4,515 nt of DNA from the IMG/VR virus record IMGVR_UViG_2675903429_000009; one strand, given 5' to 3'. Positions within the stretch are counted from its first letter, which is position 1, and every line of letters begins with the position of its first letter. Both the position numbers and the translations under genes were made by a program. Under the pieces are notes generated by a model, which saw nothing but the letters and a program-made list of their open reading frames with translations, was not told where the DNA came from and did no database searches. Origin of the DNA: a virus (taxonomy: Duplodnaviria; Heunggongvirae; Uroviricota; Caudoviricetes). Shown here one piece after another: positions 1 to 4,515 of this stretch.

Positions 1-80
1 GTATAAAAAATCGATGGGGCTGGCAGTCCGGAAGACGTCAGGGTACAGAGATTTGACCCGCCCCTCCCTGTGCATGCGCA

Positions 81-114
81 CAATAAGTAACCGAAGGCGG
101 AATTCCGCCCTCGG
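81..114 (-). terminator. putative intrinsic terminator downstream of the 156-416 ORF
   Basis: Seen in sequence: perfect 14-bp palindrome GGCGGAATTCCGCC (96-109) with extended arms CCGA/TCGG (91-114, one mismatch). On the minus strand it is followed by TTACTTATTG (81-90), a moderately U-rich tail, about 40 nt after the stop of the 156-416 ORF. Confidence 0.4.
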
Positions 115-155
115 TACTCACATATGAGAAACGATATTTCTTCCACCGATACCCT

Positions 156-416
156 TTATTTGGGTATCGCGAGTAAGCCCCAAAATCTGGGTGTTACTCT
201 TACTACCCAAACTACGGGTAGTTTCCGTAGTTTCATAGTCGGTATGTTGCGCATATCCACGCCGTTAAGCTCAATACCGTCACGGCGCATTACCTCATCC
301 ACCACACGCGCATAATTTTCAGCGGTCACGCTGTCCGGTTGCATGGCCTGTTCGTCAACCTGCTGGCTGATTCCGGCGACGCGGCGGATTAATCCCAGTA
401 TTTCGGCTTCTGTCAT
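156..416 (-). CDS. hypothetical protein downstream of the capsid gene (86 aa)
   Basis: ATG at 416-414 preceded by a GGGGG Shine-Dalgarno-like run; stop at 156-158. The first ~60 codons use typical enterobacterial codons; the last ~25 codons are rich in rare codons (CTA, CGG, AGA, ATA) and coincide with a short-repeat array (199-233), so the 3' end is uncertain. No family recognised. The position after the capsid gene would fit a head-completion or connector protein, but that is inference only. Confidence 0.4.
   Translation of the reverse strand: MTEAEILGLIRRVAGISQQVDEQAMQPDSVTAENYARVVDEVMRRDGIELNGVDMRNIPTMKLRKLPVVWVVRVTPRFWGLLAIPK
199..233. repeat. array of 7-mer repeats with 9-bp period (AAACTAC / GTAGTTT)
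   Basis: Seen in sequence: TTACTAC (199-205, degenerate), AAACTAC (209-215), GTAGTTT (218-224), GTAGTTT (227-233). Two direct copies are followed by two inverted copies, each separated by 2 bp. A 9-bp stem AAACTACGG/CCGTAGTTT (209-217 with 225-233) could also form. Confidence 0.5.
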
Positions 417-511
417 TGTGCCCCCATCGCGCTGGTTAAGAAAACAAGCTCAGATTTTTTGTAAAGAATCTGTCACGCTAAAAGATGTCGAACAAAAATT
501 AACCACAATCA

Positions 512-1396
512 TCATCTNNNNNNNNNNNNNNNNNNNNNNNNNNNNNNNNNNNNNNNNNNNNNNNNNNNNNNNNNNNNNNNNNNNNNNNNNNNNNNNNNNN
601 NNNNNNNNNNNNNNNNNNNNNNNNNNNNNNNNNNNNNNNNNNNNNNNNNNNNNNNNNNNNNNNNNNNNNNNNNNNNNNNNNNNNNNNNNNNNNNNNNNNN
701 NNNNNNNNNNNNNNNNNNNNNNNNNNNNNNNNNNNNNNNNNNNNNNNNNNNNNNNNNGTCATTACCGTCAAGATAAGCCACCTCAATTGTGTCCGTTCCC
801 TGTGCTGAAAGCATGTACCATTGCTTATCACTGACTTCATCAAGGCGGGGATCGACAATAATATCCAGTTGTTTGTGGTACGGGTTATATGAACCACTGT
901 TTGTATCGGCACCGAAAGGCGTGGTTGAGTTAACCATTTGCAACGCTCTGTCTTCCAGAGCCGCAGGAACAAGAAGGAATTTTGGCACAATATTCAGCAC
1001 CTCACCGTTTTCATCCCTCTGTGTGCGCATTGCACGGCGTGCAATGCCAAGCCCTGTAGTGCTGACTCCGTTATCAATATCATTTCCGTGTTTTTTGCTG
1101 AACAGCGGTATACCGTCAGAAAGCTTTGTGTTTCCTGTCAGCACCAGATGAACCAGATTACCCACCGTTCTGGCGGCTGCTCGCCCCATTGCCTGTGGGA
1201 TAACTGTTAACTGATTCAGGTCATCGTTAATAATCGCCTGTCGGGTAATGCTGAAAATATTTCCGTAAGTTGCCAGCGCGATTGGTTCGCCACGGTCACT
1301 GGTGGTGATGTATTTATATTCCGCGCCTTCCGGCACTTTGTTTAATGTAGAGAAGCCATTCAGGCCAACACGACGTGCCTCATGGAAGTTTGACAA
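512..1396 (-). CDS. probable phage major capsid protein (3' end uncertain because of the N gap)
   Basis: Long minus-strand ORF (at least 213 real codons before the gap) immediately downstream of, and overlapping, the ClpP-family prohead protease gene, which is the typical protease-capsid gene order. Size is consistent with an HK97-fold capsid protein lacking its own delta domain. The only start codon in frame is TTG (1396-1394) behind an AAAAAAGG purine run; alternatively the ORF is reached by -1 frameshifting from the protease gene. Capsid identity rests on context and general sequence character, not a verified homology hit. Confidence 0.6.
   Translation of the reverse strand: MSNFHEARRVGLNGFSTLNKVPEGAEYKYITTSDRGEPIALATYGNIFSITRQAIINDDLNQLTVIPQAMGRAAARTVGNLVHLVLTGNTKLSDGIPLFSKKHGNDIDNGVSTTGLGIARRAMRTQRDENGEVLNIVPKFLLVPAALEDRALQMVNSTTPFGADTNSGSYNPYHKQLDIIVDPRLDEVSDKQWYMLSAQGTDTIEVAYLDGNDXXXXXXXXXXXXXXXXXXXXXXXXXXXXXXXXXXXXXXXXXXXXXXXXXXXXXXXXXXXXXXXXXXXXXXXXXXXXXXXXR
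518..757. other. assembly gap (240 N) inside the capsid gene
   Basis: Run of N from 518 to 757. Reading-frame continuity across it is unknown, so the 3' end of the capsid ORF (stop at 512-514 in the nominal frame) cannot be trusted. Confidence 0.99.
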
Positions 1397-2505
1397 TGAA
1401 CCTTTTTTCGTCCACTGGCGGAACGTTTCGCCGCTGTGTTCACGGATTTTTCAGCACCACCAGCAAGGATATAAGTAAAATCGCTGCTGCTGTGGGTGAA
1501 TGCCGCGTTTACTATCTGCGAGCGTGTGCTGTAGCTGCCTGTGCTTATGCCGCGATGGGTTAATGATGCCTGTGCCATATCGAAAAGGCTCATCATGGCG
1601 TAAGGGTTGCCGCGTTCTGCCTGTTCATGTCCCAGACGCGCATTAAGCCCCTGACGCATTGCATCGCCGGTTATGTTGCCGTTATCCGTGTACGCGTAGT
1701 AAAGATTTGCGGGGGTGGTTTTGTTTGTCGGTGTCGATTCTTTACCCATAGTGAGTAAAAGGCGTTCGCGTGCATCCTCAACGCTACAGCCTGAATCAGC
1801 AAGACAACTTATAGCCAGGTCGTTATATCTTCCATTGAACGTGCCAAACAATTCACGTATCCCGTTGAGTCGTTCCTGTTCTCCGCTGCCAGTTTTCTGG
1901 CTGATCATGCTTTTAATATTTTCCGGCATATTCGAAAAATCTCCGATTCGTTTTGATTCAATTCTGGCCATTGCTGTAATCGCGGGTATAACCTCATCTG
2001 CGAAGCCATTAGCCTTACACTCATTGCCATCCATCCAGGTTTCCGCCTCCATCATGGCGGTGATTTCCTGTTTGCTCCTGCCCGTTCTTCCGGCGTAGGT
2101 TTCCGCCATCGTGTCGCCCAGCTTGTCCATCAGGTCAGCAAAGCGGCGAACGTCGCCCGACACTCCGGCAGTAACACCACGGGGGGCATGTATCATCATC
2201 ATCGCGTTTTCAGGCATAACGATGTGATCGCCACACATGGCAATAAACGAGGCCATAGAAGCCGCCATGCCTTCAATGTGTACAATTTTCTTTGCCGGAT
2301 GATTTTTCAGGGCGTTATAGATAGCCAGCCCTTCAAAGATGTCGCCACCAGGTGAATGGATGCGAAGATGGATTTCAGGCACATTACCGCACGCGTTGAT
2401 CTCGTCAGTAAGTGCCGATGCTTTTACACCGTACCCGCCGATCTCGTCATAAATGCGTACATGTACAACATCAGCCATAGCCTTAATGGAAAACCATGTT
2501 TTCAT
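1360..2505 (-). CDS. ClpP-family (S14) prohead serine protease with a ~180-aa C-terminal extension (scaffold-like or N-terminal capsid region)
   Basis: The translation contains the ClpP-like catalytic motifs GMAASMAS (Ser) and MMIHAP (His), comparable to ClpP GQAASMGA and MIHQP. ATG at 2505-2503 is preceded by AGGAG 9 nt upstream and overlaps the stop of the upstream small ORF (ATGA). 381 aa. Confidence 0.85.
   Translation of the reverse strand: MKTWFSIKAMADVVHVRIYDEIGGYGVKASALTDEINACGNVPEIHLRIHSPGGDIFEGLAIYNALKNHPAKKIVHIEGMAASMASFIAMCGDHIVMPENAMMMIHAPRGVTAGVSGDVRRFADLMDKLGDTMAETYAGRTGRSKQEITAMMEAETWMDGNECKANGFADEVIPAITAMARIESKRIGDFSNMPENIKSMISQKTGSGEQERLNGIRELFGTFNGRYNDLAISCLADSGCSVEDARERLLLTMGKESTPTNKTTPANLYYAYTDNGNITGDAMRQGLNARLGHEQAERGNPYAMMSLFDMAQASLTHRGISTGSYSTRSQIVNAAFTHSSSDFTYILAGGAEKSVNTAAKRSASGRKKVHCQTSMRHVVLA
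1402..1408 (-). other. candidate -1 ribosomal frameshift slippery heptamer A_AAA_AAG
   Basis: Seen in sequence: the minus strand reads CGA AAA AAG GTT in the protease frame (codons R-K-K-V near the C-terminus), i.e. the X_XXY_YYZ heptamer A_AAA_AAG in the correct phase. The -1 frame continues as GGT TCA TTG TCA AAC TTC CAT..., which is exactly the capsid ORF frame. Confidence 0.4.
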
Positions 2506-2696
2506 AGCCAGGCTCCTAACGTTGCCCTGTACCAGTATTCAACCGCGCTTCTCGCAATCTGCCCTTTCGTGGGTACTGGCATTCCAGGGTGATGACTTTT
2601 AATGAACTGCTGATAGCGTTCGAGCTTCTCCATAGTTCCGGCGTCTATGTGCACTGTTGCACTTTTATCCGGTTTTCTGCTGTTGTTCTCTGGCAT
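2502..2696 (-). CDS. small ribbon-helix-helix-like protein, translationally coupled to the prohead protease
   Basis: The ORF is open from 2729, but the likely start is the ATG at 2696-2694, which sits 7 nt after a GGAGG (2708-2704); the ATG ATG at 2729 has no Shine-Dalgarno sequence. 64 aa. The pattern of a short beta-strand (ATVHID) followed by two helices (AGTMEKLERYQQFIKS and TKGQIARSAVEYWYRA) resembles the Arc/MetJ/CopG fold by eye. The stop overlaps the protease start (ATGA). Confidence 0.45.
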   Translation of the reverse strand: MPENNSRKPDKSATVHIDAGTMEKLERYQQFIKSHHPGMPVPTKGQIARSAVEYWYRATLGAWL

Positions 2697-2769
2697 AAGT
2701 CTGCCTCCGTTATGATTAACGGGCATCATTATTGATCGATAAAACTGGTAAATAAATCATTTTCTATCT

Positions 2770-2799
2770 AAAAATCAGATTATGTATTTTCTGATTTTT
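2770..2799. promoter_or_regulatory. perfect 10-bp inverted repeat AAAAATCAGA-N10-TCTGATTTTT (operator-like)
   Basis: Seen in sequence, 40-70 bp upstream of the RHH/protease/capsid operon start. On the minus strand it overlaps a weak sigma70-like candidate (ATGACA, about 16 nt spacer, TAATCT). Confidence 0.4.
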
Positions 2800-2893
2800 G
2801 TCATACCAGCAAAAGAATTGACTAATTATTGCCACGCCAGCACAATTAAGACTCATCATTTCGGTAGTGGCAGTATCCTTTGTCGCTGACAAA

Positions 2894-2928
2894 GCGCCTC
2901 CGGTGGCACCATCGGGGCGCTTTTTTTT
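2894..2928 (+). terminator. strong intrinsic terminator, plus-strand orientation
   Basis: GC-rich hairpin GCGCC(T)CCGGTG-GCAC-CATCGGGGCGC (2894-2920, about 11 bp with one bulge and one G-U pair) followed by T8 (2921-2928). An alternative hairpin GGCGC-T8-GCGCC (2916-2933) is followed by TGTTTTTT. In minus-strand orientation the hairpin is followed by only three U residues, so it is mainly a plus-strand terminator. Confidence 0.6.
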
Positions 2929-3126
2929 GCGCCTGTTTTTTGTAAATGCTTTCGGGAACGTTCCGGCGTCGAACAAAAAACAACCTAATTCGACACTAAA
3001 AATTTTTATTTTGCCATATATCAATAACTTAAACTGGTGGTGATGGTGACATAAAAATCAAAAAATACGCCTTTTTCCGCGAACCGCCCGCCCCGTGGAC
3101 AGGCCACCCCCACCAGGAGTACCTAC

Positions 3127-3149
3127 AAAAAAGCCGGATTGCTCCGGCT
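3127..3149 (-). terminator. intrinsic terminator of the orf81-ssb operon
   Basis: 7-bp stem AGCCGGA/TCCGGCT with loop TTGC (3132-3149). On the minus strand it is followed by UUUUU (3127-3131) and starts 15 nt after the ssb stop codon. Confidence 0.55.
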
Positions 3150-3164
3150 TCTGTCACTCGTTGC

Positions 3165-3587
3165 TTAAAACGGTATGTTATCCCCGTACGGATCATCATT
3201 CCCCGCCTGTTGTTTGGCCCTGTTCAGTGCATCAGTGGCCTGCCCCTGTTGGCCTTTTTTACCGCCCGGTCGCGCCGTTCTGGCACTGATTACACTGTCT
3301 GCGATAACCTGCCAGCCCTGCCGCGTTTCTCCGTTCTGGCCTGTCCACTGGCTTACCTGCATGTTACCCGCCACGCTCACCAGCTCGCCTTTCTGGTGCT
3401 TTGCCAGTGCGTCAGCCTGTCTGCCAAACGCCAGGACGGATAACCATATCGTCGCCGTTCCGTCATCTGCCTGGCTGCACGGCAGGGGAACCGCCATACT
3501 CGCCATCGTCATTTGCGTACCCTTGCTGGTGGTCTTTAACTGCGGGTCAGCCACCAGCCGCCCGTAAGCCGCTATCTGTGCTGTCAT
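3165..3587 (-). CDS. ssb: single-stranded DNA-binding protein (SSB family), 140 aa
   Basis: The N-terminal OB-fold region aligns by eye with E. coli SSB (IAAYGRLVADPQLK versus VILVGNLGQDPEVR; WLSVLAFGRQADALAKHQKGELVSVAGNMQVSQWTGQNGETRQGWQVIADSV versus [50 protein letters not shown]). A Gly/Gln-rich linker and an acidic tail ending NDDPYGDNIPF match the conserved SSB DDDIPF tip. GGAG Shine-Dalgarno sequence; the ATG overlaps the upstream stop (ATGA). Confidence 0.85.
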   Translation of the reverse strand: MTAQIAAYGRLVADPQLKTTSKGTQMTMASMAVPLPCSQADDGTATIWLSVLAFGRQADALAKHQKGELVSVAGNMQVSQWTGQNGETRQGWQVIADSVISARTARPGGKKGQQGQATDALNRAKQQAGNDDPYGDNIPF

Positions 3588-3829
3588 GCTGTCTGCTCTC
3601 CGGTTTTAACGTTGATGGTTGTCACCTGTTCCGCTTCGGCAATCTCCCGTTCTGTCAGCGTGGCAAAGTTTGCCGCCGTCGTGGTCATGAATGCGCTTAT
3701 CAGTTCGGGATGTGCTTTCGCGTATCCTTCCCCGGCGTTGCGGTCGATGATTTTTATCGCCACCCTCAGCCAGTGTTCTGTCAAATCAAGGGCGTGAGAT
3801 TGTGGTTTTTTGGCGTGCTTCGTTGTCAC
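3584..3829 (-). CDS. hypothetical protein (81 aa) co-transcribed with ssb
   Basis: GTG start at 3829-3827 with GAGG about 9 nt upstream; stop overlaps the ssb ATG. No family recognised from the sequence. Confidence 0.5.
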   Translation of the reverse strand: MTTKHAKKPQSHALDLTEHWLRVAIKIIDRNAGEGYAKAHPELISAFMTTTAANFATLTEREIAEAEQVTTINVKTGEQTA

Positions 3830-3874
3830 AGGCTTTACCTCACAGCAATAAAATAAAATTTTTGCATTTTAACC

Positions 3875-4103
3875 CTTCACCTGTTCACCTTTTGCAATTT
3901 TCCCTTTTTATTCATGATGTTAATGGGTTAACAGTTTCACAAAAACTATTCACCAACTGTTCACCACTGTTCACCCTTAAAGCTCAATAAAGAATCAAAA
4001 AGGTGAACAGTGAATAGTTTGGTGAACAGTTCATAAATAACTGTTCACCCTATAATATACTGATATAAAAGACATTTATTGCAGGGTGAACAGTGGTGAA
4101 CAG
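3875..4103. repeat. iteron array / putative origin of replication (P4-type TGTTCACC octamers)
   Basis: Seen in sequence: perfect CTGTTCACC at 3881-3889, 3957-3965, 3967-3975 and 4041-4049; perfect inverse GGTGAACAG at 4002-4010, 4021-4029, 4085-4093 and 4095-4103; degenerate copies at 3875-3881, 3947-3954 and 4009-4017. Adjacent copies are spaced 10 bp apart. The array is flanked and interspersed by AT-rich stretches (3841-3870, 3895-3950, 4051-4080). From memory, TGTTCACC is the phage P4 type I iteron bound by alpha protein at ori and crr. Confidence 0.75.
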
Positions 4104-4132
4104 TTATTCCATAAGTTTAATTTTTTCCATCG

Positions 4133-4429
4133 TCATTTGTGACCTATTGCACATGATGGCATCCAGTCTTCTGAATCCTCTGTCAGGGTCACATTTGAAC
4201 GCAAACCGTGCTTCGTTTTCCGTTTCATATACTCCCTGCCATATTCCGCCATTGCCCCCGGCATATCTTTACCGAAGCGCGTCAGTGTTACAGGTTTACC
4301 GAATCCGTGTGCCCTCATATATGCCAGATAGGCGTGATAAAGATACCTGCGCGGACTGAACGGAATAATTTCGGCATTACCCACTAACAGACCATCACAC
4401 ATTACCGACGACATGAGGTGTACTGGCAA
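4133..4429 (-). CDS. small ORF resembling the C-terminal region of phage/plasmid primase-helicases (possible gene fragment)
   Basis: The translation contains YLYHAYLAYMRAHGFGKPVTLTRFGKDMPGAM, which matches by eye the conserved Y-x-x-Y-x-x-W-x-(5-6)-x-P-x-S/T-x-x-x-F-G motif found near the C-terminus of P4-alpha/D5-type primase-helicases. The start is weak: TTG at 4429 or ATG at 4414, neither with a clear Shine-Dalgarno sequence, and an in-frame TAG lies at 4439-4441. The two other minus frames are open to the window edge, so a frameshifted longer gene is possible. Confidence 0.4.
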   Translation of the reverse strand: MPVHLMSSVMCDGLLVGNAEIIPFSPRRYLYHAYLAYMRAHGFGKPVTLTRFGKDMPGAMAEYGREYMKRKTKHGLRSNVTLTEDSEDWMPSCAIGHK

Positions 4430-4515
4430 TAGCGGACACTACCATTTGTTCTTTTTTTAAGCAGCCATCTGATGATATTTTTCCCTGAAGGCTGCCGGGG
4501 AGATATTCCCCAGAC

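Follow-up and report, generated by a model that had tools for sequence, protein, structure and literature searches.

What kind of element joins a replication module directly to a prohead protease and a capsid gene, with no portal or terminase gene between them? The question is raised by a 4515-bp stretch of DNA (hereafter, the window), which is the entire draft contig CWTN01000233.1 of assembly GCA_001255375.1. All credible open reading frames (ORFs) of the window lie on the minus strand, where they follow one another as a C-terminal fragment of a primase gene, an iteron origin, orf81, ssb, a non-coding stretch, orf64, a ClpP-like protease, a capsid gene, and a small ORF. The initial annotation, made from the sequence alone, asked whether this order is satellite-like and compared it with phage-inducible chromosomal islands of the capsid-forming kind (cf-PICIs) and P4-like satellites. 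The gene order is confirmed, and so is the lack of portal and terminase genes, which were found neither among the window genes nor anywhere else in the element as it occurs in complete genomes. The satellite-like architecture is supported as well, by an att-bounded island of about 10.1 kb between cspD and clpS; the proposed comparators, however, belong to the wrong families, as their defining genes are not in the island. We conclude that the element is, with high probability, a classical Gram-negative PICI (GN-PICI) of the EcCICFT073 lineage and that the window holds its decayed, Shigella-type form. The element was already known: the satellite family was described in 2018, and the copy in Shigella sonnei Ss046 appears in the tables of PMC6092414.

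Because the window ends where its contig ends, flanking DNA was read from the genomes of relatives rather than from the source assembly. Two loci carry the element intact (L004, CP044151.1, and L008, CP179997.1), and L009 is the copy of S. sonnei Ss046 (CP000038.1). Before a run of Ns that interrupts the window (wrc 1-3758), six copies match it without any insertion or deletion (L002, L003, L005, L006, L007, and L009, with the match to L005 starting only at wrc 818), and the SSB protein is identically encoded in many complete genomes. The intact element is about 10.1 kb long, and its direct neighbours are cspD on the left and clpS on the right. In L004, attL and attR lie about 10.1 kb apart and share the common core ATGATAGTTAT(T/C)TATCAT; the motifs TGTTCG and GGTGTAGTTAAT, presumed to be integrase arm sites, are repeated beside both ends of the element. 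The left part of L004 encodes an integrase of 412 aa with a P4-type arm-binding domain (Arm-DNA-bind_3 and Phage_integrase), followed by AlpA (69 aa; PF05930, Phage_AlpA), two small leftward ORFs, an Icd-like ORF, orf106, and a DUF4222 protein. Its right part holds the 596-aa primase gene, the iterons, orf81, ssb, orf64, a gene for a 626-aa ClpP-protease/capsid fusion protein, and orf93. The element reaches about 0.25 kb beyond the window in eight complete or long copies, where attR beside clpS closes it, and the window is the right 45% of the island. An E. coli relative (L001, 91% identical) has the same right half and a different integrase; it ends after orf93 and is bounded by nfeF and by a tRNA gene (annotated as tRNA-Ile) next to mug. 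The integrase and the att repeats that the initial annotation proposed to look for in the flanks are therefore present in relatives, and the integration site between cspD and clpS is not a tRNA gene.

A GN-PICI is expected to be an att-bounded island of about 7.5 to 15 kb that has its own integrase, AlpA, and a primase with iterons, lacks tail and lysis genes and a complete head gene set, and hijacks packaging. On all five counts we found the corresponding trait: att sites with an integrase (in the complete relatives), AlpA together with co-oriented genes, a primase and an origin, the absence of phage modules, and a cos site of helper type. Neither annotation nor Pfam shows any tail or lysis gene, or a complete set of head or packaging genes, in the nine full copies. 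When the terS, terL, W, portal, decoration, and tail proteins of phages served as tblastn queries, none of them matched inside PICI-context loci, with the exception of TerS-like genes in some of the genera.

The Gram-negative PICI that serves as the prototype, EcCICFT073 of E. coli CFT073 (Fillol-Salom et al. 2018, PMC6092414; 2019, PMC6739421), has the same order of int, alpA, Icd-like and small ORFs, DUF4222, primase, iterons, orf81 (there orf85), ssb, a small ORF, capsid, cos, and orf93. It is likewise about 10 to 11 kb long, with co-oriented genes, two cos-like sites, and no portal, terminase, or tail gene. Protein identity to EcCICFT073 is 77% for the integrase, 57% for AlpA, 48% for the primase, 88% for orf81 (to orf85), 72% for SSB, and 75% for orf93. 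The two islands differ in their capsid genes, as EcCICFT073 encodes a lambda gpE-like major capsid protein (MCP) and a gpD-like decoration protein, whereas our island encodes a single ClpP-protease/scaffold/MCP fusion. Furthermore, EcCICFT073 has a private cosB and depends on its RppA, while our island has no Rpp or TerS and carries a helper-type cosB at its first cos site (site A); EcCICFT073 also has PerC, inverted cos sites, and att sites at ycfD-phoQ, whereas our island lacks PerC, has its cos sites in direct orientation, and is integrated at cspD-clpS.

On the published list of PICIs, two are integrated between cspD and clpS, EcCIIHE3034 and EcCI18098, with the att core ATGATAGTTAT (PMC6092414, Table S1). 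Table S2 of the same paper gives a 14.3-kb PICI at 922309-936578 of S. sonnei Ss046; these coordinates are those of L009, that is, of the element in the window. EcCIIHE3034 shares the site and the att core with our island, and its int and alpA are 97% and 96% identical to those of our island; it differs in having a lambda-type capsid module (orf68, MCP, decoration protein, orf137, and TerS) and a primase that is only 47% identical. These islands are mosaics of exchangeable modules. Nor is a capsid gene out of place in such an island. Of 29 reference GN-PICIs, 21 carry an MCP gene, which is the commonest late gene of these islands (PMC10111431), and a "capsid or capsid-modification gene" has been counted as a core component of PICIs (de Sousa et al. 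2023, PMC10085698). Since MCP genes are usual in GN-PICIs, a replication module followed by a lone capsid gene is the normal layout of a PICI.

What appear to be two overlapping genes in different frames, a ClpP-like protease (1360-2505; PF00574, E = 4e-33) and a capsid gene (from 1396 into the N run; PF25209, Phage_capsid_4, E = 1.5e-38), are the two halves of one 626-aa fusion gene that is intact in L004 and L008. In E. coli the intact gene is annotated as [quoted passage not shown] and it matches phrog_133 over its full length (E = 1e-272). The protease and the capsid, initially read as separate genes, are one gene that was split in the window by a 13-nt deletion (GCTTGCCGGATGG) at 1442/1443 relative to L004, which shifts the frame within the capsid part; the last approximately 40 capsid codons are hidden by the N run. 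A programmed frameshift between the two ORFs was considered and rejected, because the intact copies have one continuous ORF, of which the window has all but these 13 nt. The same 13-nt lesion is present in other IS600-bearing copies, and it is therefore an old, inherited pseudogenisation. The protease part retains the ClpP motifs around the serine (GMAASMAS) and the histidine (MMIHAP).

A second lesion lies in the replication module. Window positions 4418-4515 align to an insertion sequence (IS) in L003 and L009, annotated as "IS3-like element IS600 family transposase," whereas the alignment to L004 and L008 begins at window position 4417, and the primase frame has two in-frame stops. In L004 and L008 the primase is an intact protein of 596 aa with the domains D5_N, DUF5906, and Pox_D5. 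The initial call of a primase-like gene thus stands insofar as the Pox_D5 domain is matched, but only the last 93 codons are present, cut by IS600. The window also has a 1-nt insertion at 4148 relative to an intact copy, a few codons before the primase stop, which slightly lengthens the frame. The IS junction and the 13-nt deletion are both shared by L002, L003, L005, L006, L007, and L009, and complete Shigella genomes are further damaged by an IS1 beside int and, in the case of Ss046, by an IS21 within orf93. Because IS600 splits the primase gene and the 13-nt deletion frameshifts the capsid gene, the window copy is incapable of a satellite life cycle; it is a dead relic.

Such heavy damage (IS600, the 13-nt frameshift, and IS1 and IS21 in Ss046) is also what one would see if the locus were immobile and only by chance resembled a satellite, as the remnant of a prophage that was deleted. 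We consider this very unlikely in view of how the element is distributed. The same compact gene order is found in intact copies at several att sites and in other genera, and the decay is specific to Shigella-type copies. A scan of one genome per species yielded 77 loci with homologs of the fusion gene. Eight loci carry orf64 directly upstream of it, and six of these eight lie outside E. coli and Shigella, in Kluyvera (two), Yersinia artesiana, Buttiauxella, Moellerella, and Rahnella victoriana, and encode fusion proteins 57-62% identical to the query. Most of these six also have int, alpA, or a PICI primase gene upstream, and in none of them is the fusion gene directly preceded by a portal gene. 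By contrast, most of the full-length loci at no more than 51% identity have a portal gene directly upstream of it, usually preceded by terS, terL, and W (a few, L055 and L056, are incomplete). A neighbour-joining tree of 49 full-length proteins places the eight PICI-context sequences together in a single clade, which all 100 of 100 bootstraps recover. The dN/dS ratio between the two intact E. coli/Shigella variants of the fusion gene is 0.13, which indicates that the protein is under purifying selection. The island fusion genes are an old, monophyletic lineage under purifying selection, which occurs in at least seven enterobacterial genera. Among complete E. coli genomes, 143 of 5426 (about 2.6%) have a gene of the PICI type at 80% coverage or more.

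A P4-like satellite would account for the P4-type integrase, AlpA, the Icd-like protein, and the primase of D5/P4-alpha type. The list of P4-like components in one table legend (PMC13612085, Table 1) names sid, psu, and delta; none of these was found in the island by annotation, Pfam, or PHROG, and the stretch bounded by the att sites holds no gene of comparable size. In addition, the cos site is lambda-like rather than P2-like, and the capsid gene is of the lambdoid-phage type. We therefore give this reading a very small probability. The other possibility raised initially was a full-size prophage of the ordinary kind (more than 30 kb), with its portal, terminase, tail, and lysis genes beyond the window. 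The window alone is compatible with it, and the capsid gene and the cos site do have homologs in real lambdoid phages. However, the element ends at attR and clpS just past the window, and on the other side the relatives have only the primase gene, DUF4222, small ORFs, alpA, int, and cspD; L001 is likewise bounded, by nfeF and the tRNA gene next to mug, and the homologs with terS-terL-W-portal upstream are those in phage context, not those in PICI context. Because the complete flanks hold no structural genes between the att ends, the prophage reading is excluded for practical purposes. Equally implausible is a cf-PICI that makes its own capsids, packages itself, and borrows only tails: cf-PICIs encode a portal, head-tail connectors, HNH, TerS, and TerL (bioRxiv 10.1101/2022.09.08.507074; PMC10085698), and although the cf-PICI EcCIEDL933 shares the int-alpA-pri left half and, as in other proteobacterial cf-PICIs, its late operon starts with capsid and protease after the replication module, no copy of our element has a portal, a head-tail adaptor or connector, HNH, terS, or terL, its length is about 10.1 kb compared with 15.4 kb, and in place of a terminase of its own it has a helper-type cos.

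The assignment to the GN-PICIs leads to the question of how the island would be packaged, and here the stretch between ssb and orf64 is informative. The initial annotation took its 435 bp to be regulatory DNA. The stretch is indeed non-coding (435-468 bp, free of ORFs), but it contains a phage-type cos site. It opens with the likely terminator of ssb, whose hairpin also begins the cos-homologous block, and an equivalent hairpin precedes cos1 of EcCICFT073. Within site A, a cosN-like core, CCACGGGGCGGGCGGTTCGCGG, is found at 3077-3098. The minus strand of the site reads GGTACTCCTGGTGGGGGTGGCCTGTCCACGGGGCGGGCGGTTCGCGGAAAAAGGCG, followed by an A+T-rich stretch, and can be aligned to lambda ACGGGGCGGCGACCTCGCGGG as well as to the two cos sites of EcCICFT073. 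Site A is 74-91% identical to the corresponding DNA of 1720a-02, CP-1639, mEp460, and Stx phages. Over 160 bp around site A, identity is 89-91% to phage 1720a-02 and the Stx1 phage CP-1639 and 72-85% to mEp460, phi458, several Stx2 phages, and VT1-Sakai. The phage counterpart lies between the lysis genes (Rz) and terS, which is the expected position of cos, and the record of phage mEp460_4F5 begins exactly at CCACGGGGCGGG. The homology to phage cos regions ends at 2972. From this homology, site A is predicted to function in packaging.

A second and more diverged cos-like copy, site B, lies just past the capsid stop in the intact copies and falls in the N run of the window. In L004 the two sites are at 10457-10617 (A) and approximately 12965-13170 (B), in direct orientation and 2.5 kb apart; they bracket the orf64-capsid module, with a terminator hairpin before each. 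Only site A has kept the phage-type cosB part, in which site B has diverged. In the intact copies, an ORF that overlaps the 3' end of the capsid gene (orf72) is spurious, being the translation of cos site B.

Which phages might serve as helpers? The closest phage homologs of the island fusion protein are of the CP-1639/1720a-02/mEp460 type (49-51% identity over 99% of the length). The head module of these phages consists of terS, terL, a W-like adaptor, portal, a single protease/scaffold/capsid fusion, decoration, and tail genes. Because the same phages share both the cos region and the closest head protein, lambdoid phages of the CP-1639/1720a-02/mEp460/Stx1-phage head type are the likely helpers. 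A natural pointer to this type comes from Kluyvera genomosp. 1 (L021) and R. victoriana (L088), where a PICI with orf64 and the fusion gene interrupts the protease/capsid fusion gene that belongs to the resident prophage, at a position equivalent to lambda gene C. The split prophage gene is found at 3236-3571 and 14500-16146 in L021 and at 2660-2986 and 14124-15194 in L088; residues 1-112 (L021) or 1-109 (L088) are left of the island and those from 98 onwards are right of it, so that approximately 12-15 codons are duplicated. The same helper-embedded configuration was reported from the Williams laboratory for the GN-PICI 11capE, which resides in prophage 50icd and has a homolog of the helper capsid gene and a helper-like cos region (PMC10111431). 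The capsid gene of 11capE is of the lambda E type, whereas the window copy has a fusion-type capsid gene and is chromosomal, between cspD and clpS.

The islands of Kluyvera and Buttiauxella also have a TerS homolog after the PICI-type fusion gene (L020 7433, L021 12111, and L023 12182), which is 35-41% identical to mEp460 TerS. EcCIIHE3034 has a TerS homolog too, while the E. coli/Shigella variant has lost it or never had it.

For an intact copy, the following sequence of events may be proposed, largely by analogy with EcCICFT073. A lambdoid helper phage would trigger AlpA-driven expression; the island would be excised by its P4-type integrase and replicated from its own primase and iteron origin; and the helper terminase would package it as a concatemer. 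With the helper's cosQ-cosN-cosB preserved in site A, the helper TerS and terminase may recognise this site directly, which would account for the lack of Rpp and TerS in this variant. Finally, the island fusion protein might enter or replace the helper shell on the helper portal and so alter capsid assembly to the benefit of the island, which is the weakest part of the mechanism. The only precedent that we found for the role of a lone satellite capsid homolog is Ccm of SaPIbov5, a homolog of the capsid protein of its helper phi12 that redirects capsid size and shape (PMC8569155). SaPIbov5 resembles our island in being a cos-packaged satellite with a diverged homolog of the helper's MCP; it differs in being a Gram-positive SaPI of unrelated sequence, and Ccm has no protease domain.

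By this analogy, a role of the fusion protein in building or remodelling capsids is possible, and we put it forward tentatively; a role in interference only is unlikely. A 34-residue stretch of the linker between protease and capsid in the mEp460 protein is absent from the island fusion (L004 11083-12963 compared with L014 4352-6310), which could have a bearing on scaffold function or head size. One may go further and regard PICIs with orf64 and the fusion gene as a "shell-only" intermediate between classical PICIs and cf-PICIs. The protease, the scaffold-like linker shortened by 34 aa, and the capsid, joined in one chain, would then be self-sufficient in shell building and form island-sized heads on the helper portal, and the helper terminase would be recruited through an unmodified helper cos, with no need of Rpp or TerS. 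We regard this as a rather doubtful proposition. In the part of the literature that we covered, there was no explicit description or test of a PICI subtype with a protease-capsid fusion.

Several points weigh against our interpretation of the element as a working GN-PICI variant. The capsid gene of EcCICFT073 is dispensable for interference and transfer, and the DNA of this island is found in full-size heads (PMC6092414; PMC10111431); by analogy, this argues against capsid remodelling. Two direct cos-like sites 2.5 kb apart would pose a difficulty for cos packaging if site B were active. Neither orf64 nor orf93 has an assignable function. Induction, the identity of the helper, packaging, and the role of the fusion protein have all been inferred for this variant, and the window copy itself is a pseudogenised relic in which nothing works now.

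The features of the window are collected in Table 1.

Table 1. Features of the 4515-bp window, listed in the order in which they follow on the minus strand
Feature	Position	Strand	Evidence
End of IS600 (IS3 family) in the primase gene	4418..4515	-	Alignment to IS-bearing copies, IS annotation
Primase/replicase, C-terminal fragment of ~93 codons	4133..4417	-	Pfam Pox_D5, E = 3e-11
Replication origin with GGTGAACAG iterons	3881..4103		Repeat count
orf81	3584..3829	-	ORF; phrog_1231, E = 5e-49
ssb, 140 aa	3165..3587	-	PF00436 (SSB), E = 4e-16
Hairpin and T-run, likely intrinsic terminator	3124..3150	-	Minus-strand sequence AGCCGGAGCAATCCGGCTTTTTT
cos site A (cosQ-cosN-cosB-like)	2972..3132	-	Homology to phage cos regions
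Island-specific non-coding DNA, presumed promoter/operator region	2697..2971	-	Inferred
orf64	2502..2696	-	ORF; phrog_4934
Protease/scaffold-like linker/capsid fusion pseudogene	638..2505	-	CLP_protease and Phage_capsid_4; end at 638 extrapolated from L003
Run of 240 N	518..757		Conceals the capsid 3' end and the greater part of cos site B
orf93 (86-aa reading here)	156..416	-	phrog_1561, E = 3e-53

The origin contains 10 copies of GGTGAACAG in 223 bp, eight of them exact and two with one mismatch. In the whole window there are 12 matches to this motif, where 0.96 are expected, and none of 200 shuffles reached the observed number. The iterons occur in both orientations, as direct and inverted copies, with A+T-rich DNA between the sets. 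This agrees with the layout published for PICI origins, in which two sets of iterons surround A+T-rich DNA (PMC6092414, legend to Fig. 2). The orf81 gene, which overlaps the start of ssb, encodes a conserved small protein, and its family, phrog_1231, has no function assigned. The island SSB, 72% identical to that of EcCICFT073, is 90% identical to that of EcCIIHE3034. An Rfam scan of the window returned only sub-threshold plant and animal miRNA models that fall on the inverted iterons and were dismissed as spurious, and a scan for tRNA genes found none in the window.

The orf64 gene has a GGAGG motif 7 nt before its ATG, and its stop overlaps the start of the capsid gene. Homologs that are 38-69% identical are found directly upstream of the fusion gene in all six PICI-context loci of other genera, and none was matched in any phage-context locus. 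The initial annotation described the product as a 64-aa ribbon-helix-helix (RHH)-like protein. The gene is present as described, whereas the fold assignment was confirmed neither by Pfam, where there was no match, nor by a sequence search of the PDB, which gave only a chance match, nor by Foldseek, which found nothing in the PDB below E = 4.7 with the structural model; a large protein search returned only six near-identical proteins. The AlphaFold2 model has an extended-helix-helix topology (pLDDT, the predicted local distance difference test score, is 69), which is compatible with an RHH fold. Approximately 70 nt upstream of the orf64 start, at 2770-2799, there is a palindrome with perfect 10-nt arms, AAAAATCAGA(N10)TCTGATTTTT. 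It is a candidate operator, possibly for the RHH-like product of orf64. Also between site A and orf64, at 2898-2934, a strong hairpin and the T-run after it look like a plus-strand terminator, in antisense to all island genes. A promoter scan of the non-coding regions gave no more sigma-70 matches than shuffled sequences did, and none on the minus (coding) strand.

The last gene, orf93, is the conserved last gene of E. coli and Shigella PICIs, 75-90% identical to the last genes of EcCICFT073, EcCIIHE3034, and L001; a search of the PDB gave only a chance match. In the window this gene is altered by the lack, at 241/242, of 174 nt that all eight related loci possess. The loss spans the insertion point of IS21 in S. 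sonnei Ss046 and makes orf93 an 86-aa chimeric ORF, whose product is recorded from the contig of the window alone. It is probably a collapse or artefact of the draft assembly and not a real deletion. The N run is probably a scaffold gap of the assembly, since it sits within a single contig record; its counterpart in L003 is 277 nt long (12831-13107), compared with 240 N.

For annotation, our results mean that the "protease" and the "capsid" of such contigs are one PICI gene and that Shigella-type copies are dead relics. Likewise, the non-coding stretch between ssb and orf64 can be annotated as a helper cos site, which points to CP-1639/mEp460-like phages, including Stx1-converting phages, as the likely helpers of this island.

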